Made by a program: the position numbers and the translations under genes. From an uncultured virus (IMG/VR IMGVR_UViG_3300025922_000001) (lineage: Duplodnaviria; Heunggongvirae; Uroviricota; Caudoviricetes), in IMG/VR virus record IMGVR_UViG_3300025922_000001: a DNA stretch of 32,433 nt; one strand, written 5' to 3'. Positions 3,443 to 32,433 of this stretch are shown here, piece after piece. Each line of letters starts with the position of its first letter. Within the stretch, counting starts at the first letter, position 1. Below the pieces are notes generated by a model. The model had not been told where the DNA came from. It saw nothing but the letters and a program-made list of their open reading frames with translations, and did not search any database.

Positions 3443-4804
3443 ATGACCGCCGGTGGAATGACGCGCAGCGAAGTCGCTGGCGCTTCTGCACGCGCTTTGA
3501 TGAGTTATCTCGAGCGCCCGCCGGGTTGGAACCCCCGCCCTCACCAGATTCCACCAGCTGGAAACTGGTATGGCTGGCTTTTGAACGCGGGTCGTGGTTC
3601 TGGAAAAACCCGCACGTGTGCGCAATACGTGATCGATCATGTGAAGGGCCCGCCGTGTCTACCCGGCAGCACACCTCACTGGATTGGTATCATTGGTCCG
3701 ACGCTTGGAGACGCTGTCCAGGCGTGTTTTGCGGGGCCGGCGGGGATTGGACCGAACGACCCGACCTCTCGTATTGCGGGAGGTCTAGGCGGCACTGTCA
3801 TCAAGTGGAGTAACGGCTCGCAAGCGAAGCTATTCGGGGCTTCCACGCCTGATGATATCGAACGTCTACGCGCAGGCGGTAACACATGCCTAGTATGGGC
3901 TGAAGAACTCGCGGCTTGGCGTCATCTCGACAAATGCTATGAGCAGATGCGGTTTGGTCTTCGTACCGGTAAGACACCTCGCTGGATCGCGAGTACGACG
4001 CCTAAGCCAAAGTTGCTCATCAAGAAGCTTGTTAAGAACACGCCGCACAACGTCATTGTCACGCACGCAACGACTCACGATAATCCCTACCTTGAGCAGC
4101 ACGTTCGAGACGAACTTTTTGCGGACTATGAAGGCACGCAAATTGGTCGACAGGAACTGTACGCCGAGGTCATGGATCAGGATGAAAACGCGTTGTGGCG
4201 ACGCGATGACATCGATCACTTCCGTGTTAAGGAAGCTCCTGAGCTTGTACGCGTCACGGTCGGTGTTGACCCATCGGGTGGTGCTGGTGAACAAGGTATC
4301 GTCGTCGCGGGTAAGTTCATCATCGATGAGATCGTCAAGGAGCGTAAGCAAAAGCGCTTTGAAGGTTTCGTTCTTTCCGATATGACGTGTCGTCTCGGCC
4401 CTGCCGGATGGGGTCGTCGGGCAGTCCAGGCGGCGATTGACTGGGAAGCCGACGACATCGTTGTCGAGACGAACTACGGCGGTGAAATGGCCGTTGTCAC
4501 AATCCGAGACGCGGCGCTTTCAATGGGTATCACCATTCCCGTGAAAATGGTCGTGGCAACACGTGGTAAGCGTGTTCGTGCCGAGCCTGTTGCAGCACTT
4601 TCCACTCGTGGTCAGTGGCATCACGTTGGTACTTTCCCAGAGCTTGAGGATCAGTTGTGCACCTGGACTCCTGAGCTCGATTACTCACCCGACCGACTTG
4701 ACGCTATGGTGTGGACTGCTTGGCATAACAAGATCGTAGCCACGCGTCCTCGCGGTATGGGTTCATTCGCAGGTGGAGGTTCCATGTCCCGCTCGATCGG
4801 ATAG
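3443..4804 (+). CDS. terL: Terminase large subunit
   Basis: PHQ motif, Walker A AGRGSGKTR, Walker B VWAEE, STTPKP, DNPYL, GRQEL, nuclease VGVDP, VETNYGG, PDRLDAMVW. Confidence 0.95.
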   Translation: MTAGGMTRSEVAGASARALMSYLERPPGWNPRPHQIPPAGNWYGWLLNAGRGSGKTRTCAQYVIDHVKGPPCLPGSTPHWIGIIGPTLGDAVQACFAGPAGIGPNDPTSRIAGGLGGTVIKWSNGSQAKLFGASTPDDIERLRAGGNTCLVWAEELAAWRHLDKCYEQMRFGLRTGKTPRWIASTTPKPKLLIKKLVKNTPHNVIVTHATTHDNPYLEQHVRDELFADYEGTQIGRQELYAEVMDQDENALWRRDDIDHFRVKEAPELVRVTVGVDPSGGAGEQGIVVAGKFIIDEIVKERKQKRFEGFVLSDMTCRLGPAGWGRRAVQAAIDWEADDIVVETNYGGEMAVVTIRDAALSMGITIPVKMVVATRGKRVRAEPVAALSTRGQWHHVGTFPELEDQLCTWTPELDYSPDRLDAMVWTAWHNKIVATRPRGMGSFAGGGSMSRSIG

Positions 4805-4810
4805 CTGTTA

Positions 4811-4820
4811 TGATACGTTA
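4811..4820 (+). promoter_or_regulatory. Putative extended -10 promoter
   Basis: TGA-TACGTT-A in the intergenic gap; same pattern as 3428, 12310 and 14348. Confidence 0.4.
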
Positions 4821-4844
4821 ATGGAATCCGAGAGAGGTGACGAA

Positions 4845-5087
4845 GTGGCTTCGGGCTCAGTTGAGATTGGTGTAAAAGAAATATACGACATTCTGATGAT
4901 TCTTGACGGTAAGATGGATGCGTACATGCGGGCACAGGAGCCGCAAATGGCGTTGTTCAATCACCGTCTTACGCAGGTAGAAACGAAGATGGATAAGACT
5001 GCCGATCGAAGTTGGTTGCTCTACCTCACACTTATCGCATCGGTTGTATCACTGATCGGTACATTTGCACCGATCATCGCGAAGTAA
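4845..5087 (+). CDS. Small coiled-coil protein with a C-terminal transmembrane helix (possibly holin-like)
   Basis: GTG at 4845 after SD GAGGTGA, in frame with ORF 4773..5087. RLTQVETKMDK coiled segment, then hydrophobic WLLYLTLIASVVSLIGTFAPII. Confidence 0.6.
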   Translation: MASGSVEIGVKEIYDILMILDGKMDAYMRAQEPQMALFNHRLTQVETKMDKTADRSWLLYLTLIASVVSLIGTFAPIIAK

Positions 5088-5449: not shown

Positions 5450-7351
5450 ATGGTATGGTGGGATCGCCGTAAGAAGAGCAAGCATGCGGCAGTTGACACC
5501 CGTCTCGTTGTGCCATCGCGTGATGAACGTGTTTTGACCGCCGCTGCTCAGACGGTCAACACAATCGCACGGGGTCGCACGCGCATAACGCCAAAGTATG
5601 ATGGTTGGCAGCGTGAGCTGTGGGATTACTACGACACGCTCGGTGAATTCAACATCTCCGTGACGTGGCGTTCATACATGATCTCGCGCGTGCGGCTTCG
5701 TGCTGCAAGGTTGAAGCCCGGTTCAGATGAGCCTGAGATTGTCGATGTAGGTCCAGCGGCTGACTTTGTGAATGAACTTTGTCGTGGCACCGCCGGACAG
5801 ACCGAAATGCTCGGTTCGCTCTCTGTGTACCTTGATGTGCCCGCTGAGGGCTGGCTTGTTGGTGAGACAACGGGTAACCGGCAGAAGTGGCGTGTCATCT
5901 CGAGTGACGAAATTCGACGTCGTGGACGCGAGTATGAAGTCATCTCTGATGAATCAACGGAATCCGATGTCATTTGGCGTACGCTTCCCGTTGCCACTTC
6001 ATACGTGACACGCATTTGGCGTCCACACAAGCGTCTTCATTATCTACCGTACTCGTCCGCGTACTCCGCGCGTAGCGCGATGCGTGAACTTGAGTTGGTC
6101 AACCGACACATTCAGGCACAGTACCTATCACGTCTTGCGTCAGCCGGTCTCATCATTTTCCCCGATGAGATTACTTTTCCTGTGCGTCCTGAATTTATGA
6201 ATGAGCCTGACCCGTTCATTCGTGAATGGATTGAGACTGCTGCTGAAGCCATCAAGAATCCTGGCTCAGCATCATCGCTGATCCCGCTTCCAATTCGCGT
6301 GCCTGCTGAGTACGTGGAGAAGGTAAAGCACATTGACTTCACGCTTAAGATGGATGATAACATCATCGCAAAGCGTGACTCGGCTCGGAATCGTTTGGCT
6401 TCACAAATTAACGTCCCAGCCGACCTGCTCTTCCAGGCAGGTGACGTCAATCACTGGGGATTGTGGCAGCTTGAAGAAGGTGCCATTCGTACCTACATCA
6501 CGCCCGATGTTGAGATCATTACTCATGGTCTCACCACCGGATACTTGCATCCGCGTATGCGTGCTGCTGGCATCGAAGATTACGATGACTGGGTTGTTTG
6601 GTATGACGCATCTGAATTGATGGTGCGGCCAGACAAGTCGGACAATGCCAAGGATGTGTACGACCGCTTCGAGTTGTCGGGTACTGCTCTTCGTCGTGAA
6701 ACTGGCTTTGACGAGGATGATGCGCCTGACGACACTGAGCTCGCTAACATGATCCTTAAGAAGCTGGCAACAAACCCGACTCTTGCCATTCAGGCATTGC
6801 AGGAACTCACTGGCATCAAGCTTGAAGAGCCAGCGAATCAGGCAGCTGTTTCTACCGAAGGTCCAGTGGTGACTGGCTCTGAGTCTGATGGCGATAGTGG
6901 TGCATCAAACGATGGGCCACCGAACACTGGAAACGATGAACCACCTGCGCCTGCCGCATTGGCTGCTGAGCTTGAGCGTATTGCAATTGAAAGCGTGTTG
7001 CCTAAGCCCGCTGGTTCATTGATTCCAAGTCCTGTGCCATTCGAATCACTCTCGTCTGAAAACCGTGCGTTTGCAATCATGCAGGCTGGCATGCGTCACG
7101 TGATGGAATTCACGATTGACAGCTGGCGGCTTAAGCATCCACTTATTTGCATGGAGAAGCAATTCTCCTGCCCGTTCACGCATGCCAGTTATGAAGGTGT
7201 GCGATTCCGCCCTGGGACAAAGGGTGATTACGAGTGCTTCCTCACTGACCGCGGCGAGTTGTCCATCGGGCAGCGACTCATCAATCACGACGATACACGA
7301 CTTGTCGCGAATCCGAGGAAGGTAATCAATGGTACACGTCTCGGGTCCTAG
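5450..7351 (+). CDS. Portal protein with C-terminal extension
   Basis: WQRELWDYYDTLGE, SRVRL, RIWRPH, SRLASAGL, NHWGLWQLEE, VWYDASEL.VRPD, ALRRETGF resemble cluster-B-like actinophage portals; follows terL. Confidence 0.85.
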   Translation: MVWWDRRKKSKHAAVDTRLVVPSRDERVLTAAAQTVNTIARGRTRITPKYDGWQRELWDYYDTLGEFNISVTWRSYMISRVRLRAARLKPGSDEPEIVDVGPAADFVNELCRGTAGQTEMLGSLSVYLDVPAEGWLVGETTGNRQKWRVISSDEIRRRGREYEVISDESTESDVIWRTLPVATSYVTRIWRPHKRLHYLPYSSAYSARSAMRELELVNRHIQAQYLSRLASAGLIIFPDEITFPVRPEFMNEPDPFIREWIETAAEAIKNPGSASSLIPLPIRVPAEYVEKVKHIDFTLKMDDNIIAKRDSARNRLASQINVPADLLFQAGDVNHWGLWQLEEGAIRTYITPDVEIITHGLTTGYLHPRMRAAGIEDYDDWVVWYDASELMVRPDKSDNAKDVYDRFELSGTALRRETGFDEDDAPDDTELANMILKKLATNPTLAIQALQELTGIKLEEPANQAAVSTEGPVVTGSESDGDSGASNDGPPNTGNDEPPAPAALAAELERIAIESVLPKPAGSLIPSPVPFESLSSENRAFAIMQAGMRHVMEFTIDSWRLKHPLICMEKQFSCPFTHASYEGVRFRPGTKGDYECFLTDRGELSIGQRLINHDDTRLVANPRKVINGTRLGS

Positions 7352-10300
7352 TCTTGATCAGCTTGATGATCGTGGTGATCGATTCGCTGCTGATATTAGG
7401 CGCACGATTGCTAGGATCGTCAATATCACTATGCCTAAGGTGGGAGACATCAATGATCTCGCGATCATTCGAACCCACTGGACTTCTGCTGTCAACGACG
7501 CGCTGATTGAACACCTCCGTAACGCGTGGGTTGACTCGGCTGACGACACCTACGGGAAGTTGACTCAAGCAGTTGCTCGAGTGACTCAGGCCCAACCACA
7601 GCAGTCTCAGCCAGTTGCGCTCACTGCTGCGTTTCTTGTGCCGAAGGTTGTTAGTCGTCTTGCTGAGTTGTTTCTTGAGAATGCGATTAACCGACTTGTC
7701 TCTATCGGTGATCTCGTGTGGAACGTCGCACGCCAGCAGATGCTGATTGGTATGCAAGCCGGTGAAAGCATTACTATGATTCGTCACCGTCTCATGAAGA
7801 CAACTGAACTTGCTTCACCACGTGCTGAGGTCATTGCACGCACCGAGGTGATTGGTGCGAGCAATGCCGGTTCATACGCTGAAATGAAGGCTACCGGACT
7901 TAATGCGACGAAGGAATGGATTGCGACGACCGACAGTCGCACGCGTCCTTCGCACGAACACATCGATGGTGAAGAAGTTGGCATCGACGATAAGTTCATC
8001 GTTGGTGGGTATGCTATGTCGTATCCTCACGACCCCACTGGACCGCCGCAAGAAACCATCTCTTGTCGCTGCACGCTAGGTTGGGACATTCCCGATGAGG
8101 AGTTCTTGATGATTGACGGTGAACCACTAGCGGCGGCAGCGACTGCGTTTCACTTGCGTGGTAGGCACGATCAGAAGGATCATGGTCGTAAGGGTCTTCG
8201 TGGTCTTAATGCTGGCAAGTCTCTTAAGATTACACATGGTCTTGTGCATAAGAAGCAGGCTGACGGCTCGATTATCGCTGTCACAAAGGACGGCAAGAAG
8301 CACATCCTGTGGGAAGGCAACAAGTATCACCTTCGTGAGAAAGATGACAATGGTCTGTGGCAGACCAAGAAGACGGTCATCAAGTCAAAGGCATACAAGG
8401 AAATCAGTGATTTTGCTTCTGACTGGCACGAGCCAGATCAGGAAAAGCCTGGTGACAAGAAGACAGATGATGGTGACAAGAAGGTCACCACTGATAAGAA
8501 GACTACACCTATTCCAGCAGCCGCACCGACACCAGTCGCTACTGACACAGCATCTGGCGCACCGCTTAAGATCACGCACGGGCTTATTCACAAGAAGCAC
8601 GCTGATGGCACGACGATTGCTGTCAATAAGAATGGTGATAAGAAGGTCACCTGGAATGGCAAGTCATACGATCTCGATAAGAAGCAGGCCGATGGGTCAT
8701 GGAAGACCGAGAAGACGGCCATTAAGTCGAAAGCCTACAAGGAAGTTAACGACTTTGACTCGGCGTGGCATGAGCCGGTAGCCAAGGGTGATGACACCGA
8801 ACTTCCTTCTACACGGAAGACACCTGCACCAGCAGTGAAGTCCGTTAAGTCTGCAGCAACGACTTTGCCGAACGATGTCAAATATATCAAGCCAGGCAAG
8901 CAAATCAATCTTGATCAGCAGTATCTTGATACACATGAGTTTCCTGACGATTCGGTCATTGCCATTTCTACGTTCGGCACCAAAAAGATTACTGCACATG
9001 GTGATAAGATTTCTTTTCACCACATGGACGCGAAAAATAAGTGGGTAAAGAATAACGAAACATCAATGAGTGATGCACAGGCTGCGATCGATAAAGCGGA
9101 TGCTTATTGGCATGAGCCTGTCGCTGTGTCTGTTGGTACGCCGAAGAGTGATAAGAAGTCACCAGTTCCAGCGGTTACGCCTAAGACGACGCCCATTCCG
9201 ATGGAAAAGGAGTTGATTGAGGCAGATAAGCCTCTTAAGATCATAGATGCATTGTCTGGTGATGTGCCAGAGTATTCGACAATTGCTGTGACAAAGGACG
9301 GCAACTATCGAGTCGTTTCACTCAATGGTAAGTACTTTGAAGTTCAGAAGAACAAGAAGGTCGGTGGTTGGGGACCTCTAACATCGTTTGAAAAGGGAGA
9401 TGAGTACAGCGACATTGTGTCGCTCAACAAGGAGTGGTACACACCTAAGCTAGCAACACAAAAGACCAAGACTGTTCCGAGCACATCGCCAATGACTGCT
9501 GGCGAGCCGATCGACATTACACAAGATATGTTTAAGGACGTTAACTTCCCGCCTAAAACAGTGTTGGCAGTTAACGAAGATGGTACGAAGCGTATCATGA
9601 GATCTTGGAATGACACGATTGCAGTCCAAGAGTGGAATGCAGAATTTGGAGTTTGGACCGGATCACAGTGGCTTACTGATGGCAAAGAAGCCGAAGAAGT
9701 CTCAAAGCTTAACATTAAGTGGCATGCGCCTGTCGAGACAGGATCAAAGGCAACTGCACCAAGTGCACCAGGCGCGCCAAATGTAAGTACACCAAAATCA
9801 ACGCCTACGGCACCATCTAAGACGATTGATAAGTACGCGCCTGTGGAACCAGGCAGACCCATTACGCTAGCGCAAGAATTCTTTTTTCAAAATTACCCGG
9901 CAAATAGCACAATCGCAGTTACACCTGATGGCAAGACAAAAATTGCCTGGGGTAATAATGGTAAGTATGAAATTCTTGAACTTGATGAAAAAAGTGGCAC
10001 TTGGTTCGTTACCGAGAATGCCAATCAGTATGGTGCACTCGCAATGGCGCAAAACTTTTCTATTGAGTGGCATGAGCCAGAAAACGCTAGTCCGTCTAGC
10101 ATAAACACACCGGGTAATTCATCTACTTCAACTAAGTCGGCTAATAAACTAAAGCATGTGTATATGGGCAACAAGGCGTTGCTCGACCAGCCGGTCACTC
10201 TTACACAGGCAACGTTTGAAGATTCATATCCGTCTGGTTCTGTAATTGCGATGAATGCTTTTGGCACGTATCAGCTTACACGTGAAGGAGGAAAGTTCAA

Positions 10301-11375
10301 GATACGTGCTAATGATGGTAAAGGTAACTGGATCGTCGTCCAGGAGAGTGATAAAGACGGCGCGTTTAAGATGGCAGATAGCTTTGCCGCAGACTGGTGG
10401 TCAGTGAAAACTGATGTCAACTCAGTCACGGAAAATTATCCTGTGTCTGCTCCATCTGCTCCATCTGCTCCAAGTGGACCAAAGACGTTTACACCTTTTC
10501 AGAAGGCGTATGTCCAGTCGATTTTCGGCAGTAACGGTGTGAAATGGCACACTGACACGAAGAAGATTTACGATGCTGCACTTGAAGTGTCGAAGAAGGA
10601 TTCTTCGTTGTCGATGGCCGATGCACTCGACATCATGGATCAGTCACTTCTAAAGAAGACTGATAATCCATTTGCCACAAAGATGAACAAGTTCCTGAGC
10701 ACCAAGGCAGGAATGAAGTACGCGCAGGAGAAGGGTGGCTCTGCGCCGGTTGGCTCAGTCACACCAAGCGTAGCTGCTGCATCAAAGTCTTCAGTCAATA
10801 TCCCAAAGTCAAATTTGCCGGCAAAAAATCTTACGAAGGCATCGGCGACTAATATGCAGCAAAGGATGGATCTACTTAGCCCACCCCCCTGGACTGCCAC
10901 ACAGCGGGCTGCACTTAAGAACTACACCGGTGGCTCGTACACTGAAATCAATAAGTGTGCGCGCGGAACTGGTGCATGCTCACCGGCCACAATCGCTAAG
11001 ATCAAGCAGATTAAAGCAGCGATGAAGCCGAGCACTGAGAACATCAAGCTCTATCGCAAGACCAATTTGGCTACGTTTGGCGTTACTTCAAACGAGCAAC
11101 TTGAAGCTCTCGCTGGTAAGACAATTCGTGATGATGGTGTCATTAGCACGAGCATTGTCGAGGGTACGTGGTCAGGACAAGTTCATCTCAAGATTGAAGC
11201 GCCAGCAGGATCCAAGATGGCGTGGGTCCAGCCGATCAGTCACTACCCGAATGAGAATGAATTCGTTCTCGCGCCGGGCACTGAGTTTGAAGTGATCAGT
11301 GTAGAACCCCACTGGTCTGAGCCAAATCAGCGAGTCATGAAGGTTCGCATCGTACCAGGGAGTGGCACGCCGTGA
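7329..11375 (+). CDS. MuF (SPP1 gp7-like) minor head protein fused to seven repeats and a C-terminal ADP-ribosyltransferase
   Basis: RAEVIARTE, KEWIATTDSRTRPSH..IDG, F.VGG..MSYPHDP, ETISCRC (MuF). C-terminal ALKNYTG.SY..IN, LYR, ISTS, NENEFVL..GTEFEV (VIP2/Alt-like ART). Confidence 0.9.
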   Translation: MVHVSGPSLDQLDDRGDRFAADIRRTIARIVNITMPKVGDINDLAIIRTHWTSAVNDALIEHLRNAWVDSADDTYGKLTQAVARVTQAQPQQSQPVALTAAFLVPKVVSRLAELFLENAINRLVSIGDLVWNVARQQMLIGMQAGESITMIRHRLMKTTELASPRAEVIARTEVIGASNAGSYAEMKATGLNATKEWIATTDSRTRPSHEHIDGEEVGIDDKFIVGGYAMSYPHDPTGPPQETISCRCTLGWDIPDEEFLMIDGEPLAAAATAFHLRGRHDQKDHGRKGLRGLNAGKSLKITHGLVHKKQADGSIIAVTKDGKKHILWEGNKYHLREKDDNGLWQTKKTVIKSKAYKEISDFASDWHEPDQEKPGDKKTDDGDKKVTTDKKTTPIPAAAPTPVATDTASGAPLKITHGLIHKKHADGTTIAVNKNGDKKVTWNGKSYDLDKKQADGSWKTEKTAIKSKAYKEVNDFDSAWHEPVAKGDDTELPSTRKTPAPAVKSVKSAATTLPNDVKYIKPGKQINLDQQYLDTHEFPDDSVIAISTFGTKKITAHGDKISFHHMDAKNKWVKNNETSMSDAQAAIDKADAYWHEPVAVSVGTPKSDKKSPVPAVTPKTTPIPMEKELIEADKPLKIIDALSGDVPEYSTIAVTKDGNYRVVSLNGKYFEVQKNKKVGGWGPLTSFEKGDEYSDIVSLNKEWYTPKLATQKTKTVPSTSPMTAGEPIDITQDMFKDVNFPPKTVLAVNEDGTKRIMRSWNDTIAVQEWNAEFGVWTGSQWLTDGKEAEEVSKLNIKWHAPVETGSKATAPSAPGAPNVSTPKSTPTAPSKTIDKYAPVEPGRPITLAQEFFFQNYPANSTIAVTPDGKTKIAWGNNGKYEILELDEKSGTWFVTENANQYGALAMAQNFSIEWHEPENASPSSINTPGNSSTSTKSANKLKHVYMGNKALLDQPVTLTQATFEDSYPSGSVIAMNAFGTYQLTREGGKFKIRANDGKGNWIVVQESDKDGAFKMADSFAADWWSVKTDVNSVTENYPVSAPSAPSAPSGPKTFTPFQKAYVQSIFGSNGVKWHTDTKKIYDAALEVSKKDSSLSMADALDIMDQSLLKKTDNPFATKMNKFLSTKAGMKYAQEKGGSAPVGSVTPSVAAASKSSVNIPKSNLPAKNLTKASATNMQQRMDLLSPPPWTATQRAALKNYTGGSYTEINKCARGTGACSPATIAKIKQIKAAMKPSTENIKLYRKTNLATFGVTSNEQLEALAGKTIRDDGVISTSIVEGTWSGQVHLKIEAPAGSKMAWVQPISHYPNENEFVLAPGTEFEVISVEPHWSEPNQRVMKVRIVPGSGTP
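8214..10406 (+). repeat. Seven divergent ~75-aa protein repeats within the MuF-ART gene
   Basis: Units G.P[LI].[IL]...[ST][TIV]IA[VM]..[DF]G...W...W[HY][ETA]P, separated by P/T/S/K/A-rich linkers. Units 1 and 2 are the most similar (LKITHGL.HKK.ADG, IKSKAYKE..DF...WHEP). Confidence 0.85.
10446..10472 (+). repeat. 9-bp tandem repeat x3 (TCTGCTCCA; Ser-Ala-Pro)
   Basis: Three perfect copies in the linker after the seventh repeat. Confidence 0.9.
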
Positions 11376-25992: not shown

Positions 25993-27108
25993 ATGCGACC
26001 CGTCAGCACAAGATATTTGGAAGCACTTCGCGGTAGTCATAAGATGGTGGCTGACGCGCGCATTCTTACTACGTTTCAAACGGGTGTTGATCCGGATGGG
26101 ACAGAAATTCCTATCTTTGCTGGAGATGTTTCGTCAGACGCTAGTGCGTCAATTAGGTCCACGCTTGAGCTTGAAACTGACGGCACGCGTATGTGGTCGA
26201 CGATGCCTAGCGGATTGCTCACACCGTATGGTAATGAAATCTTCATTAGGCGTGGGATTGATTTTGGTGACGGCACACGTGAGTGGGTTAGTCAGGGATA
26301 TTTTCGTATCACTGACACTGATCAGAAGTCCAACGTCAATAATAAGATCAGCATTACTGCGTATGATCGTATGTCTAACATCGTCGATGCACGCCTTACC
26401 ACACCGCAGCAATTTCCCGCTGGCGTGCTTATTGGCGACATTATGCTTGAACTCATCACTGAAGTGTATCCTGACGCTGTCATCGAGTGGGATGATAGCA
26501 CCGATAGTGAGGTTCTTCGTAGGCCACTGATTGCTGAGGAAGACCGGTACGAATTTCTCAATGATCTCGTTATTTCGTACGGTAAGATCTGGTACTGGGA
26601 TTATCGTGGTGTTCTTATCATTAAAGACCCGCCGGATCCACTTAGCATTGTGTATGATGTTAATGCTGGTGAAGGAGGTGTGCTCGTTAATTTTGATCGT
26701 TCACTTAGTCGTGAAGGCGTGTATAACGCGGTTGTCGTTAATGGTGAAGGTGCCGACACCATTCCACCAGTTCACGTTGTCGTTGTTGATGGTAATCCAC
26801 AGAGTCCCACGTATTGGGATGGCCGTTTCGGCAAGGTGCCGAAATTTTTTACATCATCATTCATTACGACAACAGACCAAGCCGTCACCGCAGGCGAAAG
26901 CATGCTGCTTCAATCAAAAGGCTTGCCATACAACATTGATTTCGACACTGTGCCCAATGCGGCTCTTGAGCCACTGGACCCTGTAGGCGTCACTACGTCT
27001 GACGGGCAGGAAATTCACGTGATTGAAACACTTAATACACCACTCGTTGCAACCGATGTCCAGACTGCCACCACACGTGAGCAGACGATCCTGGCTCCGG
27101 TGGTGTAG
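25993..27108 (+). CDS. Minor tail / baseplate hub protein (DUF5047-like)
   Basis: MRPVS.RYL..LRGSH, IRSTL.L, LTPYGNEIFIRRG, EWV..GYFRI, SREGVYNAVVV.GE, SPTYWDGRFGKVPKFF.S, PNAALEP.D. Confidence 0.8.
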   Translation: MRPVSTRYLEALRGSHKMVADARILTTFQTGVDPDGTEIPIFAGDVSSDASASIRSTLELETDGTRMWSTMPSGLLTPYGNEIFIRRGIDFGDGTREWVSQGYFRITDTDQKSNVNNKISITAYDRMSNIVDARLTTPQQFPAGVLIGDIMLELITEVYPDAVIEWDDSTDSEVLRRPLIAEEDRYEFLNDLVISYGKIWYWDYRGVLIIKDPPDPLSIVYDVNAGEGGVLVNFDRSLSREGVYNAVVVNGEGADTIPPVHVVVVDGNPQSPTYWDGRFGKVPKFFTSSFITTTDQAVTAGESMLLQSKGLPYNIDFDTVPNAALEPLDPVGVTTSDGQEIHVIETLNTPLVATDVQTATTREQTILAPVV

Positions 27109-27110
27109 CG

Positions 27111-27806
27111 ATGACCGTTGACCGTACGTCTGATCTTACACCGAACCTTCAGCAACGGCTGAATACTGACATTGGTTATCACCAAGGTATCATTTCAAAG
27201 TGGGATGCGCAAACCGGTTCGAACATTATTGATATGGCGGGTACGCCACTTATTGACTTGCCGATGTTGAACATCACTGAGGCACTCGTTTTGAAGCCTG
27301 GCATGGTTGTCGGTCTACTGCGTTTCAAGCAGACTTACTTCATTCTCGGTCGCATTGTTGTGCCAAACCAACCTGATTTCTTTTCAGGTGTTATGCCTAA
27401 CATGACAACAACGTTGTGGCCTATTAACTCAGACGCAGCGACGCAAAACAACACTGTTGACTCAAAGTGGTACCCCAAGTGGGTGGGTGGCTTTGTCGTA
27501 AATCACCCTTCTCTTGCATTTGGTGCATCAAATGACATGAGTTCTGCTGGAGTGACTGGTAACTGGCGACTTCAGTGGTATCCAAATCGTGTTAATAATC
27601 AACCTGATCAATCAGGTGGAACACTCATCTTTGAGTCTGATGTTCTCACAGGTTCGCTTCTTTACGAAACAGGTGAATACGTCTGGCCAGTGGGTTTGCG
27701 AGGTAATCTTGTTTACCTATCTTTTGAAGTTCGTCTTACAGCAGCAGCGATTCCGGGCACTGACTGGATCGCCGTTCTACCCGCGTACCTCTTTGGTCAC
27801 GGATAA
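27111..27806 (+). CDS. Minor tail protein
   Basis: GYHQG.I..WD..TG.N.I...G....LP.L, L.PGMVV.LL......FILGRI N-terminal module; tail-tip position. Confidence 0.65.
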   Translation: MTVDRTSDLTPNLQQRLNTDIGYHQGIISKWDAQTGSNIIDMAGTPLIDLPMLNITEALVLKPGMVVGLLRFKQTYFILGRIVVPNQPDFFSGVMPNMTTTLWPINSDAATQNNTVDSKWYPKWVGGFVVNHPSLAFGASNDMSSAGVTGNWRLQWYPNRVNNQPDQSGGTLIFESDVLTGSLLYETGEYVWPVGLRGNLVYLSFEVRLTAAAIPGTDWIAVLPAYLFGHG

Positions 27807-28556: not shown

Positions 28557-28784
28557 ATGTCGAGCATGGACGGCCTGCGTAGTCAACTGGCTGAGGTTCG
28601 AGAGACGCTCAGGGATGTGGTAGGGCGCCTGGATGCTCTCGAGAGGAATGCTGTGACGGCAGAGGTCAAGCTGGCTGCGCTGGTTGAGACCAAGCCGCCG
28701 TTGAACGTTGAGACCAAGCAGCCGATGAACGTCGCAGGCAAGCCTCCGGTGGGCACCGGTGGTGTGGTGACGCGCAAGTCATGA
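28557..28784 (+). CDS. Hypothetical coiled-coil protein
   Basis: SD GAGGA, heptad-like LAEVRETLRDVVGRLDALE, ATGA overlap with the next gene. Confidence 0.55.
   Translation: MSSMDGLRSQLAEVRETLRDVVGRLDALERNAVTAEVKLAALVETKPPLNVETKQPMNVAGKPPVGTGGVVTRKS
28683..28730 (+). repeat. 24-bp tandem duplication (VETKPPLN/VETKQPMN)
   Basis: GTTGAGACCAAGCCGCCGTTGAAC then GTTGAGACCAAGCAGCCGATGAAC (2 mismatches). Confidence 0.85.
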
Positions 28785-29884
28785 AGGTTCACGTCTACCC
28801 CGGTGATCAGTGGGGTTGTGGTTTTCACCGGATGATTTGGCCCGCGCAATACCTCATTGCGCAGGGTCGTGACATCGACATCATTGAGCAGCAAAAGCGT
28901 CGCCTGATGATGGAGGTGGACGACCAGCACAATGTGCGTGACATCGAAATTCCTGGCGGTGTTGATGTCGTCGTGTTCCAACGAACCACGCATCGTTACC
29001 TCGCGCAGGCGGTGAAGATTCTTCGTAAGAAGGGCATCACCGTCGTCATCGATGTGGATGATGATCTTAGCACGATTCATCCAAGCAACCCCGCATGGAT
29101 GGAGCTCCATCCACGTCGCTCGAAGACCATGGGTCCAGATGGTCAACCGCACATGCATTCTTGGGCGAACATGGAAGCCGCGTGTCGTGAGGCTTCCTTC
29201 ATCACCGCAACGACACCCGCGCTCCTCAAGAAGTACGCACCCCATGGACGTGGTGCTGTGGTGCCGAACTACCTGGCACATCACTACTATGAGCACTCGC
29301 ACTTTGACTCAGACGTGATTGGCTGGCCCGCCTCATTGGGCTCTCACCCGAACGACCCCGATGCGGTGGGCAACGCCATCTCTCGTCTCGTCGATGAAGG
29401 TGCACACTTTCACGTTGTGAGCATTTCACCCGGTGTGGGTAAGGCATTCGGACTGTCCAGTGAGGATGACCTCACGCAACTTCGCACGCCGATCGCACTG
29501 AATAACTGGCCACGCGTGTTGGCTGATCAGCTTGGCATCGGCATCGCTCCACTCGCTGACACCAAGTTCAATGCAAGCAAGTCGTGGCTTAAGCCACTTG
29601 AGATGTCGGCCGTTGGCGTGCCTTGGGTCGCATCCCCTCGTGAGGACTACAGCCGTTTGCACAAGCTCGGTGCTGGCTGGCTCGCGGAGAAACCGAGCGA
29701 CTGGTACAGGAAGCTACGCGCCTTGCGAGGGAGTGCTGAGCTTCGAGCTGACTTGGCCGGTAAGGGTCGGGAAGTTGCCGAGACGTTGAAGCTGGAAGAC
29801 AACGCGTGGCGGTGGTGGGAATCATGGCGCACAGCTATTACGAGCGACATGAGCTACGACTACCGTCCGATCGCCATTCTCTAG
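28781..29884 (+). CDS. Glycosyltransferase (GT-B fold, GT4-like)
   Basis: GCGFHRM.WP, DVVVFQR, VIDVDDD, TTPAL, VVPNY, IGW, GIGIAPL.DT.FN.SKS.LK.LE.SA.GVP.VASP. Confidence 0.85.
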   Translation: MKVHVYPGDQWGCGFHRMIWPAQYLIAQGRDIDIIEQQKRRLMMEVDDQHNVRDIEIPGGVDVVVFQRTTHRYLAQAVKILRKKGITVVIDVDDDLSTIHPSNPAWMELHPRRSKTMGPDGQPHMHSWANMEAACREASFITATTPALLKKYAPHGRGAVVPNYLAHHYYEHSHFDSDVIGWPASLGSHPNDPDAVGNAISRLVDEGAHFHVVSISPGVGKAFGLSSEDDLTQLRTPIALNNWPRVLADQLGIGIAPLADTKFNASKSWLKPLEMSAVGVPWVASPREDYSRLHKLGAGWLAEKPSDWYRKLRALRGSAELRADLAGKGREVAETLKLEDNAWRWWESWRTAITSDMSYDYRPIAIL

Positions 29885-29972
29885 CCCTAGATGGGTCTGA
29901 GACTCTCGTCAGACAGAACAGACTGCCTGCGAGCCGAGAACTACGGCTACGCAGGCAGCTCTGTTTCTAGGG
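29885..29972. terminator. Structured convergence region / probable bidirectional terminator
   Basis: Long bulged hairpin GAACAGA-CTGCCTGCG-AGCCG...CGGCT-A-CGCAGGCAG-C-TCTGTTT (29916-29966) between convergent genes. Confidence 0.65.
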
Positions 29973-30434
29973 TGTTCTGGGGACATCACAACCGTGTCGA
30001 TGCATCCACTGACGAGTTGTCTCAACACCGCAAACCGGACACGGAATACGCGGCATCTTGTATCCCGATCTCCGTGACTTAGGCGAGGGTTTTTCCATTT
30101 CAACTCGCTTATGCCAAAATGGCAAGGGATCGTGTTGATTTTTGATGGCTATCTTAAGCATGTACTCTCTCGCCGCTGCGATATCGACGAAGATGAGGTT
30201 GCTCTTATAGCTATTGCACAAATGACAAGAGGCCACCCAATTGGCATCGTCATTGCTTTCGCAATAAGTGAACGGGATAAAGTGATCCCATTGCAACTCA
30301 AGCCATTGCCAATCATTGTTTCTGCGAACGACCAAATCTCCGAAGAGATGTCCACAGTAGAGACAACGATTATCTTGCTCTTCGAGCACGGCGGCTTGGA
30401 CGGCACCTGATGGGCGGCCTCTTGACACTACCAC
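29967..30434 (-). CDS. HNH endonuclease
   Basis: Q..RCLYCG, WDHFIP......DDANWVASCHLCN..KSN (HNH with CxxC pairs); extra C-terminal CPVCG. Confidence 0.85.
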   Translation of the reverse strand: MVVSRGRPSGAVQAAVLEEQDNRCLYCGHLFGDLVVRRNNDWQWLELQWDHFIPFTYCESNDDANWVASCHLCNSYKSNLIFVDIAAAREYMLKIAIKNQHDPLPFWHKRVEMEKPSPKSRRSGYKMPRIPCPVCGVETTRQWMHRHGCDVPRTP

Positions 30435-30437
30435 GTA

Positions 30438-31190
30438 TTATCCCCTGATCGCCTTGGTCTGCTTCAAACCGCGCTCGCCGGTGTTCGCCTTCTTGCCAGC
30501 AGCGTAGCCTGCCTGGCTCGCTTCCCAGCCGCCACCGGACATCTTGACCGACTTGCCCGGGGTGAGATTGAACTGCACGTTCGCCCAGTCATCCACGAGC
30601 TGACGACGATCGCGCAGAACGAGCTCGGTGCCGGGCTCGCTGGACTGCGTGTCAGCGATGATCACCCGACGAGACTCGGCGATGCGGGTCGCGGCGCCTC
30701 GTCCGAATCCCATGATGAAGGTGCGACGTGCCTTGAACTTCTGCATCGCGGTGTGACCGGTGGCATCGTACGTCTTCCACCACGTGGAGAGCGCCGACAT
30801 CAGCTGGAGCTGAAGTGAGGTGACGAGCACCTTCATCTGCTCGACGTCGCTCTCGTAACCCACGATCCAGAGAATCGCCTCATCCTTGGTCGACGCGTCG
30901 ATCGTCTTCGTTGTCTTAAACGCGTCAGCGATGTCGGCCATCGCGATGAAGACGGCCTTGCGGTACACGCCGGTGTAGACGATCTCGACCTTCATCATTC
31001 GCTCGTCCGACGCGTGGCTCTTGCCCGCGCGCTTCGCGTTAATCACGGCCTGCTCGATGCCGTACTTGAGCATCAGCTTCTCGGCGTGCTCGGTGAGTGC
31101 TTCAGCCTCGGCCGGAGTGGTCTTCTCGGCCTTCGCGAGCAGCTTCGCGATGCGGTCCTCGATCTTGGAGGTGTCCGGCTCAGTCATCAT
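30438..31190 (-). CDS. DUF2786-like domain protein
   Basis: RIAKLLAKAE.T...EAEA....AEKLMLKYGI N-terminus, IVGYESD, RRTFIMGF, ELVL, GY.AG; SD AGGAG. Confidence 0.75.
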   Translation of the reverse strand: MMTEPDTSKIEDRIAKLLAKAEKTTPAEAEALTEHAEKLMLKYGIEQAVINAKRAGKSHASDERMMKVEIVYTGVYRKAVFIAMADIADAFKTTKTIDASTKDEAILWIVGYESDVEQMKVLVTSLQLQLMSALSTWWKTYDATGHTAMQKFKARRTFIMGFGRGAATRIAESRRVIIADTQSSEPGTELVLRDRRQLVDDWANVQFNLTPGKSVKMSGGGWEASQAGYAAGKKANTGERGLKQTKAIRG

Positions 31191-31196
31191 GCTCTC

Positions 31197-31442
31197 CTAG
31201 GTTCCTTTTGGTGCAACGGGACTGACTTTATCACGGTGGTACTTCACATGTAAATAGGCAGCACGCATGCATCTGTCCCAGGCATGAACTGCGAAGTACT
31301 CGCTTGCCCATAGTGGATAGTAACGAGACGTGCGAGCCGGTCGACGAAACGCACGACCCTGACGATTCGTCCACGCGCGATCACACACTGGACAATACCA
31401 CTCCCAGAGGTTCTTGCTTCGCTTTCGTACGCGAATCTTCAC
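31197..31442 (-). CDS. Hypothetical basic protein with CxxC
   Basis: 81-aa ORF co-oriented with its neighbours and filling the gap; WYCPVC and HVKYH. Confidence 0.5.
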   Translation of the reverse strand: MKIRVRKRSKNLWEWYCPVCDRAWTNRQGRAFRRPARTSRYYPLWASEYFAVHAWDRCMRAAYLHVKYHRDKVSPVAPKGT

Positions 31443-31443
31443 G

Positions 31444-31521
31444 TACCCCTCGCAAGATTCGAACTTGCCATCTCGACGAGATCTTGACCGAAGGTCATCG
31501 AAAAGTCACCAAGAGAGGGGC
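31444..31521 (-). ncRNA. tRNA-like element without a canonical D arm or anticodon loop
   Basis: Minus strand: GCCCCTC/GAGGGGT 7-bp acceptor stem plus discriminator A, and a perfect T arm GCAAG-TTCGAAT-CTTGC. The interior has short hairpins TGACC-TTC-GGTCA and ATCTC-GTC-GAGAT. Confidence 0.6.
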
Positions 31522-31547
31522 TCACTGCGCTTTCGCGCAGCTCCTTG

Positions 31548-32054
31548 CTACGCGCCGCCGAGAAGCGGGACGTTGACCGCGGTCATCGGCTTTTCGCTGA
31601 CGATGTAGTCGAACGTCGTCTCGATCATGTTGCCGTCGGCGAGGAAGAAGAAAATCCCCGGATCCCCGTCACCGTAGGAACCGTCGTCCTGCGCTCCATC
31701 CACCACCGCCTGGGAGCACTGGTAGTTCCCGGAGGTGCCGCCGCAGTCCCAGATGATGTCCTGTGTAGGCGTACGCTGCGACCCGCTGGAAGAGATCTTG
31801 CCCTTGGCCACGTAGTAGCCCATAGGCTGACCGAAGTTGTACAGGTAGATGTACCGAACGGCGCTGCCGTTCTCCTCGCGCTTGCGCTTCTCCTCGAGGT
31901 TTTTCTTCTCGAGCGTGTCGCCCTGTGCCTTTTGGGCCTGTTGCTGGCTGCGGGCGATTGATTCTTCCGTCTGGCCAGTGCATGCCGTGAGGCCTAGTAC
32001 GCCGACGATCGAGAATAGTGCTGCGAACTTCTTCCAGTTCTTGAGCATGATCAC
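31548..32054 (-). CDS. Putative lipoprotein
   Basis: KNWKK, hydrophobic stretch, lipobox LTAC; YIYL..FG....YY..KGKISS..SQ.TP, DDGSYG....GIFF. Confidence 0.75.
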   Translation of the reverse strand: MIMLKNWKKFAALFSIVGVLGLTACTGQTEESIARSQQQAQKAQGDTLEKKNLEEKRKREENGSAVRYIYLYNFGQPMGYYVAKGKISSSGSQRTPTQDIIWDCGGTSGNYQCSQAVVDGAQDDGSYGDGDPGIFFFLADGNMIETTFDYIVSEKPMTAVNVPLLGGA

Positions 32055-32433
32055 TCCTTGCAGTCGGTTTCAGACTTGGTGGTGTCGATGACATCGGGCA
32101 GATCGGCGTCCTTGAAGTCCTTCTGCGAGAACTTGCGAGCCGCAGCGTTGTACGCACCCACCGCGTCGTTACAGATCATCTTCTGTCCGGTCAGCTCGGT
32201 CTTGAGCTTGACGCTGTCGGGCTGACCCTTAAGCGCTTCCGCCGTGAGAGTCAGGTTCTTGTCGGCCGTGAGGACCGCGTTCCACATGCCCTCGAAGCCC
32301 TCTTGTGCTCGGATACGATTGCGAGCATCGTTCTTGATGACCTCGGCGTCACCTCGACCCTTGATGTCGCTGGTGCCGACACCGAAGCCCCAGTGCGCGA
32401 TGCCGATGCTGCCGAAGACGACGATCACCACGA
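32051..32433 (-). CDS. Membrane-anchored protein (5'-partial)
   Basis: Hydrophobic N-terminal segment running off the window edge, helical body, C...V..YNA.ARK......D.DLP..ID....C; ATGA overlap with the lipoprotein gene. Confidence 0.6.
   Translation of the reverse strand, partial: VVIVVFGSIGIAHWGFGVGTSDIKGRGDAEVIKNDARNRIRAQEGFEGMWNAVLTADKNLTLTAEALKGQPDSVKLKTELTGQKMICNDAVGAYNAAARKFSQKDFKDADLPDVIDTTKSETDCKE

Follow-up and report, generated by a model that had tools for sequence, protein, structure and literature searches.

The IMG/VR record IMGVR_UViG_3300025922_000001, a 32,433-nt stretch of DNA from an uncultured member of Caudoviricetes (the whole stretch is referred to as the window), harbors on its minus strand a 78-nt tRNA-like element that has no anticodon arm and ends immediately before the start codon of an 81-codon gene. 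By analogy with the t-elements of plant mitochondria, the element could be grouped, with about an even chance of being right, with tRNA-derived, non-decoding sequences that RNase P and the enzymes of 3' tRNA processing excise from the transcript. Its nature as a real tRNA-derived RNA element is supported by a tRNA cluster on the same strand, by tRNA-like cassettes at the same site in related contigs, and by further look-alikes and an RtcB RNA ligase gene in the same phage. The element is more likely to be a cutting mark or a small RNA than debris. Among the three functions offered by an earlier note on this DNA (an mRNA-processing signal, a translational switch and a decoy RNA against tRNA-targeting defences), the processing signal is ranked first here, and the earlier interpretation is partly supported. 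The window is part of an actinophage-like siphovirus of ∼93 kb. Four contigs of the same phage group were found in IMG/VR, namely, G004 and G005, which carry the same sequence as the window at the site, and the relatives G003 and G002. G004 was 100% identical to the window over 2534 nt, and G002, at 93,054 nt, is estimated to be 98% complete. The same sequence was also present in the rhizosphere metagenome runs X5 and X8.

The acceptor stem of the element consists of 7 bp, i.e., a G1-U72 pair and six Watson-Crick pairs, with C3-G70 as the third pair. Together with the T stem, it forms a stack of 12 bp in which all the acceptor and T-stem pairs (12/12) are intact, and the T arm contains the core GTTCGAATC. 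The D-like region carries TTGGTG, and the interior of the element comprises 46 nt, in which no 7-nt anticodon loop was seen in the sequence or in the folds. A GNRA-capped hairpin, found only once in the window, precedes the element and is separated from it by the three bases TGA (minus strand). The element fills the gap of 105 nt between the two same-strand genes, and its A73 is followed by a single C and then by the GTG, 1 nt after the element, that starts the 81-codon gene. The acceptor stem, the perfect T arm, the stemless D-like region, the GAAA hairpin and the absence of an encoded CCA, all described in the earlier note, were confirmed by sequence and by folding. The same note had drawn two hairpins with 3-nt loops in place of the anticodon arm. 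Both of them, TGACC-TTC-GGTCA and ATCTC-GTC-GAGAT, can be drawn, but the minimum-energy fold keeps only the first. In that fold, the interior forms a 9-bp helix with three G-U pairs around the UGACC-UUC-GGUCA hairpin, and the helix is made by pairing of the second hairpin sequence with the D-like region. Similar to canonical phage tRNA genes, the element has a 7-bp acceptor stem, a 5-bp T stem, a 7-nt T loop TTCGAAT, a length of 78 nt, A73 and an N73-C74 end with no CCA. Unlike them, it has no D stem, no anticodon stem with a 7-nt loop, no RF00005 match and no ARAGORN call.

A canonical tRNA was taken to be one that reaches the RF00005 cut-off of 29 bits or receives a tRNA call. ARAGORN reported 0 genes in the window and Rfam nothing at the gathering score, as the earlier note had anticipated. 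No match to the tRNA clan was obtained at E ≤ 10 in 31200-31800 or at E ≤ 5 across the whole window, and no RF00005 match at E ≤ 1 was obtained at the element site in G004 and G005. An ordinary tRNA, which the earlier note had named as the outcome that would undo its proposal, is ruled out by the lack of an ARAGORN call and of an RF00005 match at these permissive thresholds. A strict pattern (five Watson-Crick T-stem pairs, loop TTCRANY, seven acceptor pairs with at most one G-U and a length of 65-95 nt) matched the window once and none of 1000 windows simulated with a first-order Markov model (0/1000), whereas a looser rule that allowed G-U pairs anywhere and lengths of 55-100 nt found a match in 31 of 300 simulations. 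The fold of the 78-nt element was more stable than expected (z = -2.78, with 1 of 200 shuffles equally stable), and so was that of the hairpin (z = -2.88, 2 of 200 shuffles). No paralogue or source copy of the element was found in the window, G002, G003 or G004 with the script scan and blastn-short.

Comparison with the relatives showed that homology breaks exactly at the borders of the element between nearly identical flanks. In G003, homology resumes at window position 31444 (94% over 992 nt, with 146 of 150 positions identical downstream), and in G002, it stops at 31518 and resumes at 31443. The cassette of G003 (L003, also found as L023) is a 67-nt element with the same A-C-GTG junction and a G3-U70 pair. 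It scored 46.4 bits with RF00005 and 27.4 bits with the transfer-messenger RNA (tmRNA) model, under the 47-bit cut-off of the latter, and ARAGORN called it a 68-nt tRNA-Tyr. The cassette of G002 (L006) folds into a 70-nt cloverleaf with a CCAC-UUCG-GUGG stub and received no call from ARAGORN or Rfam. A 95-kb contig of run X9 represents a fourth state, with 76 other letters in place of 31442-31543. A 151-nt contig of run X16 covering 31390-31540 differs by seven substitutions and no gaps, the single listed position being outside the element. The replacements in G003 and G002 are also tRNA-like, which indicates that the tRNA shape is what persists at the site. The loop of the hairpin conforms to GNRA in all three readable variants (GAAA in the window, GAGA in L006 and GUAA in L003), and AAGGAG is kept in the window, L006 and L003 although the upstream gene of G003 differs. 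The 81-codon gene follows the tRNA-like cassette in all variants. Alignments revealed no similarity between the window element and the tRNA-like element of G003. The window and L006 elements may be diverged homologues, as judged by eye, since they have in common the 5' bases of acceptor pairs 1-4, three of the five T-stem pairs and CUUCGG at the centre. In four stem pairs, both partners differ between the two elements, and BLAST does not align them. Searches of viral contigs for further variants of the site, with the hairpin pattern, P0001 and P0003, returned only contigs of one set of four, and a scan of metagenomes yielded one extra contig identical to the L003 type and one unrelated weak match (L024).

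The tRNA cluster, read in G004, shares its strand with the element and is located ∼2 kb upstream of it, just past the right end of the window. Non-decoding look-alikes in this phage, the window element included, number at least five, compared with three tRNAs with a readable anticodon (Met, Glu and Arg). Folding showed that a capped hairpin replaces the anticodon loop in the 70-nt element (UCUCG-ACAA-CGGGA) and in the 66-nt element (GGGGUA-AUCG-UACCCC), the latter having no ARAGORN call and no RF00005 match at E ≤ 1. All the tRNA or tRNA-like genes read, including the window element, end in N73 followed by C with no CCA (9/9), and this common end suggests one processing route. The 66-nt element is identical at 64/66 and 65/66 positions across relatives, against 103/155 in one flank, and the 70-nt element at 69/70 positions. 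The 88/95-nt element is identical at only 66/95 positions between G004 and G002, with acceptor strands TACACGG/CCGTGTA vs. TGCGTAG/CTACGCA, i.e., both partners differ in four acceptor pairs while pairing is preserved. Conservation of the 66-nt and 70-nt elements and the compensatory pairs of the 88/95-nt element argue that this class of look-alikes is under structural selection. Speaking against such selection, cassettes are also exchanged or lost: the tRNA-Met cassette differs between G004 and G002/G003 (L018:1100-1800 on the minus strand, corresponding to G004 4380-5080), and G003 is without the 70-nt "tRNA-???" that heads the cluster and has a similar-looking element, with the same first 14 bases, at the site of the window element. 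A full-length gene for the RtcB RNA ligase is present in G004 (26459-27568, minus strand, L036, 383.7 bits) and in G002 (39294-40403, minus strand, L037, 384.9 bits). When the look-alikes and tRNAs were compared with the annotated tRNAs of cultured phages, matches were limited to the two canonical tRNAs of the cluster, Met and Glu. The 88/95-nt element adjoins tRNA-Arg at ∼2.5 kb from RtcB and has acceptor, D and T arms, with a long helix in the place of the anticodon arm and a GUGGUGG stretch kept in its distal loop region.

Features of the window element, its neighborhood and the look-alikes of the same phage (window coordinates unless a contig is named; bit scores of the look-alikes and tRNAs as reported)
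Feature	Position	Strand	Remarks
Stop TAG of the upstream ORF	31550-31548	minus	sequence read
AAGGAG	31541..31546	minus	immediately 5' of the hairpin; same in window, L006 and L003
GNRA-capped hairpin CTGCGC-GAAA-GCGCAG	31525..31540	minus	3 nt 5' of the element; sequence and fold
tRNA-like element, 78 nt	31444..31521	minus	sequence, folds, script scan
5' acceptor strand GCCCCTC	31515..31521	minus	pairs with 31445-31451
T arm GCAAG-TTCGAAT-CTTGC	31452..31468	minus	loop matches tRNA T-loop consensus TTCRANY
3' acceptor strand GAGGGGT	31445..31451	minus	contains Shine-Dalgarno (SD)-like GAGG; sequence read
Discriminator A73	31444	minus	followed by C at 31443 and GTG at 31442-31440
Upstream gene P0002, 168 aa	31548..32054	minus	hydrophobic N-terminal segment, then LTAC
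Downstream gene P0001, 81 aa	31197..31442	minus	GTG start 1 nt after A73
Next operon gene, 250 aa, DUF2786 / phrog_421	30438..31190	minus	profile match
HNH endonuclease-like gene	29967..30434	minus	last of the minus-strand block; phrog_2118, E = 1.3e-10
70-nt element	G004 cluster	minus	ARAGORN tRNA-??? with two-base "anticodon"; RF00005 43 bits
tRNA-Met	G004 cluster	minus	72.6 bits
tRNA-Glu	G004 cluster	minus	61.4 bits
60-nt look-alike	G004 cluster	minus	11.2 bits
tRNA-Arg	G004, outside cluster		62.4 bits
88/95-nt look-alike	G004 24019-23932 (L031:3932-4019); G002 36853-36759 (L026:16759-16853)	minus	23.2 bits in G004
66-nt look-alike	G004 6324-6259 (L030:6259-6324); G002 18373-18308	minus	found by script scan only

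RNase P and the 3' tRNA-processing enzymes require no more of a substrate than stacked acceptor and T stems. Since the element presents such a stack within an operon, and no promoter-like or terminator-like site was found beside it on the minus strand, it is expected to be cut from the transcript. From the structure, synteny, cassette replacement and context observed at the site, the following course of events is proposed. The element would be transcribed within the polycistronic RNA of a minus-strand early operon, and host RNase P would cut at its 5' end, between 31522 and 31521, so that the upstream mRNA would end in the GNRA hairpin and have its 3' end protected by it. A cut after A73 (31444), made by RNase Z or through some other route of 3' tRNA processing, would leave the mRNA of the 81-codon gene with a leader of ∼1 nt before GTG. 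In Actinobacteria, in which leaderless mRNAs are common, such a near-leaderless form would be translatable. The excised RNA of ∼78 nt would then receive CCA and could persist as a tRNA-shaped small RNA. The element would thereby be one of a set of anticodon-less look-alikes that are kept and exchanged as cassettes by the phage lineage.

The closest known parallel to such processing is provided by t-elements, which direct cleavage by RNase P and RNase Z at the ends of mRNAs. In Arabidopsis mitochondria, their ends set the 5' and 3' termini of mRNAs, and the excised t-element receives a non-encoded C/A (PMC1920247, in part). As far as plant mitochondrial t-elements are described there, they resemble the window element in having a tRNA-like fold, a conserved T-arm motif and an acceptor-like stem, in not decoding and in lying beside mRNAs (PMC1920247, in part). 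The window element likewise combines a tRNA-like fold carrying the T-arm core with a position between two same-strand ORFs. It matches only the core GTTCGAATC of the t-element T-arm motif and not the flanking GG/CC. The ends of t-elements, moreover, were mapped by experiment, whereas the present element belongs to a phage operon and is known from sequence alone.

Small, non-decoding RNAs with tRNA-like ends are also encoded by bacteriophage T4, whose tRNA cluster includes the stable RNA species 1 and 2 (rnaC/rnaD) that are matured by tRNA-processing enzymes. The T4 RNAs lie inside the cluster, whereas the window element lies ∼2 kb downstream of one, between protein genes, and the two are likened by description only. 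The ends of YrlA RNA form a Ro-binding stem and not an acceptor stem. The ends of the window element form an acceptor stem, and it has no Rfam match, which sets it apart from Y RNAs. No member of the TROVE/Ro60 family was detected among the 58 ORFs scanned of the 123 listed for G002. The likeness to YrlA Y RNAs (PMC4201824, in part) and to tRNA-Other of Bacillus cereus (PMC3399842, in part) consists in their being tRNA-shaped and non-decoding. An actinophage RNA, the tmRNA of mycobacteriophage DS6A, which is reduced to its tRNA-like domain (TLD), has little beyond acceptor and T arms and no anticodon arm, similar to the window element (PMC4131195, in part). The tmRNA TLD, as described in that part of the source, has G3-U70 and matches the tmRNA model, whereas the window element has C3-G70 and no RF00023 match. 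Among the variants of the site, only the G003 element combines G3-U70 with a match to the tmRNA model, at the sub-cut-off score given above.

Several observations weigh against the proposed excision. The 46-nt interior alone folds no better than its shuffles (z = -0.62, with 51 of 200 equally stable). The statistical signal therefore resides in the acceptor stem, the T arm and the hairpin and not in the interior hairpins, and these hairpins as a designed feature are unsupported. The presumed RNase P site has A at position -1 and G1-U72 as the top pair, neither of which is typical. A leader of 1 nt is not strictly leaderless, and abutment on a start codon is not general: in L006, a spacer of 17 nt and a small ORF that has an SD sequence of its own come after the element, and the 60-nt look-alike lies 44 nt from the next gene. 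The 60-nt look-alike is also precisely absent from G002, which fits dispensability as well as exchange. No RNA is recorded among the listed sequencing runs that carry the sequence, so that transcription and cleavage are inferred only. The window variant is identical in all three other contigs that carry it (3/3), and there is no covariation for its own sequence. Finally, the same picture would follow, with no selection, from one rearrangement inside a functional tRNA gene.

The last point is the core of the foremost rival explanation, i.e., that the element is a young tRNA pseudogene whose D/anticodon region was disabled by internal rearrangement or deletion, any cut by RNase P being an unselected leftover. 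This explanation is rather unlikely. In its favour, ARAGORN and Rfam do not call the element, its interior is without significant structure, and the sequence shared by the three other carrying contigs may point to a recent origin. The cassettes turn over (the 60-nt look-alike is absent in G002, tRNA-Met is replaced, and the 70-nt element is missing from its usual site in G003), and the counterpart in G003 still receives a tRNA score. However, the full set of acceptor and T-stem pairs and the consensus T loop stand intact beside an unrecognisable interior, a combination that would not result from neutral decay but could result from one rearrangement. The phage has at least four other look-alikes without an anticodon, some of them conserved above their flanks or covarying, and the lack of similarity to the G003 tRNA-like element indicates that the window element is not that gene decayed in place. 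Useless DNA is, moreover, usually lost fast from phage genomes, which also counts against a pseudogene.

An improbable explanation is that the released tRNA-shaped RNA is itself the product, either as a decoy or sponge for host factors binding the body or the 3' end of tRNA, such as tRNA-targeting toxins, the CCA-adding enzyme, EF-Tu or SmpB, or as a non-decoding carrier of an amino acid, its place in the operon being incidental. The full-length RtcB (Pfam "tRNA-splicing ligase RtcB", a family known for tRNA repair) suggests a conflict over tRNA. Non-decoding look-alikes outnumber the tRNAs with a readable anticodon, and the site is hypervariable, with three to four cassettes between near-identical flanks, as in an arms race. 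The anticodon loop is what most known defence nucleases directed at tRNA recognise (cf. PMC10264068, in part), and its absence from the element counts against a decoy. The window variant also has C3-G70, which is not the alanine mark. A precedent exists in the TLD-only tmRNA of DS6A, which has been proposed to titrate SmpB (PMC4131195, in part). The decoy idea drawn from DS6A would fit the G003 variant, which carries G3-U70 and is matched by the tmRNA model, better than the one in the window.

Regulation of translation with no cleavage was considered as well. The acceptor stem would hide the SD-like GAGG of the 81-codon gene until it is opened by ribosomes or a factor. The position of GAGG, 5 nt before GTG and inside a G+C-rich stem of 7 bp, favours such a switch, which is nevertheless very improbable. 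The earlier note had read GAGGGG as the only SD-like sequence of the gene, and this reading is weakened by the relatives: L003 has the same A-C-GTG junction with no SD-like sequence in its acceptor strand, and in L006, the gene of G002 has its own AGGTGGA, separated from the element. An intact acceptor/T minihelix is, in addition, expected to be cut by RNase P, which would remove the SD sequence.

That the stretch is not an RNA element at all, being a small ORF or an att remnant copied from a host tRNA, is scarcely credible. A frame is open from GTG 31523 to TGA 31441-31439 (28 codons), with a GTGA overlap with the next start and AAGGAG upstream. However, its GTG falls in or at the base of the hairpin stem with AAGGAG 15 nt away, and the frame varies from 28 codons here to 21 in L006 and is fused in frame to the next gene in L003. 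The 3' halves of tRNAs are common att cores, which was counted in favour of an att remnant. Against it, the 23-nt string of T arm plus acceptor was absent from 185,579 species genomes (0 matches), and a 19-nt version had three genome matches, none of them a tRNA, with the limit that the host may be missing from the collection. The element keeps both of its acceptor strands, something not required of an att core, and no integrase was detected among the 16 window ORFs scanned. The small-ORF and att-remnant readings were rejected on the varying frame and the lack of a host tRNA match. Of the two kinds of remnant that the earlier note had held up against its own proposal, the att remnant is accordingly disfavoured, and the decayed tRNA stays as the rather unlikely rival discussed above.

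The flanking genes belong to a minus-strand block that spans 32431 to 29967. The upstream protein P0002 may be lipoprotein-like, as judged from its N-terminal sequence. In a distant search, its DNA relatives were genes of Arthrobacter and Microbacterium phages annotated as hypothetical or membrane protein. For the region 30400-32433, megablast found no DNA relatives among cultured phages, and the distant search hit this upstream gene only. The downstream protein P0001 has a strongly basic N-terminus followed by CxxC and His/Cys residues and may be a zinc-binding nucleic-acid-binding protein. Its codon differences were four synonymous and 0 non-synonymous in comparison with L003 (G003), and 11 synonymous and seven non-synonymous in comparison with L006 (G002). 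On this sequence comparison, P0001 is judged to be a real conserved gene under purifying selection. No family or homologue of P0001 was found outside this phage group with family profiles, protein search or tblastn against phages, and its best score in Atlas (0.87) was under the usable level. In G002, the small ORF (L006:1371-1490, plus strand, ∼39 codons) sits after the tRNA-like cassette and before the conserved 81-codon gene. By eye, this ORF is hydrophobic with Cys-rich N-terminal residues, and it is absent from the window. The DUF2786 protein encoded next in the operon was ∼40% identical to proteins of 222 Microbacterium phage records.

The plus strand of the window encodes the large terminase, a MuF-like head protein, the tape-measure protein and tail proteins. 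The MuF-like protein (7329-11375, plus strand, 1348 aa) contains PF04233 (E = 3.7e-18) and a C-terminal ADP-ribosyltransferase domain (PF03496, E = 9.3e-21) and is probably an ejected head protein with enzymatic cargo. Genes of sugar metabolism (UDP-glucose dehydrogenase, glycosyltransferases and NAD-dependent epimerase) were observed in the window at 489-1703 and 28781-29884 (both plus strand) and in G002 (L028:13606-16603), which suggests modification of DNA or of the cell surface. A 745-aa ORF of G002 (L025:11176-13413, plus strand) has a LAGLIDADG_3 domain at residues 500-552 and may represent an inserted homing endonuclease or an intein.

The literature searched contained no account of phage families of tRNA look-alikes that lack an anticodon, the older T4 papers and supplements lying outside that search. 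What is special to the window element is the replacement of cassettes at a fixed site and the abutment on a start codon. A distinctly tentative proposal is that the phage lineage keeps at least five look-alikes per genome with a closed or replaced anticodon loop, more than its decoding tRNAs, swapped as precise cassettes at fixed sites with near-identical flanks and accompanied by an RtcB ligase, as a fast-evolving counter-defence or host-takeover set directed against factors recognising the body or the 3' end of tRNA. The window element would then be one allele of a hypervariable locus. With its three to four alternative cassettes between nearly identical flanks, the site offers a tractable natural experiment. 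If the excised RNA is the product, it would join a little-described class of phage look-alikes that includes the T4 stable RNAs and the TLD-only tmRNA of DS6A. Should the proposed cuts take place, the punctuation of mRNAs by tRNA that is familiar from mitochondria would also act in a bacteriophage operon, and the resulting near-leaderless mRNA would represent a simple route by which a phage sets the ends of its mRNAs with host enzymes.

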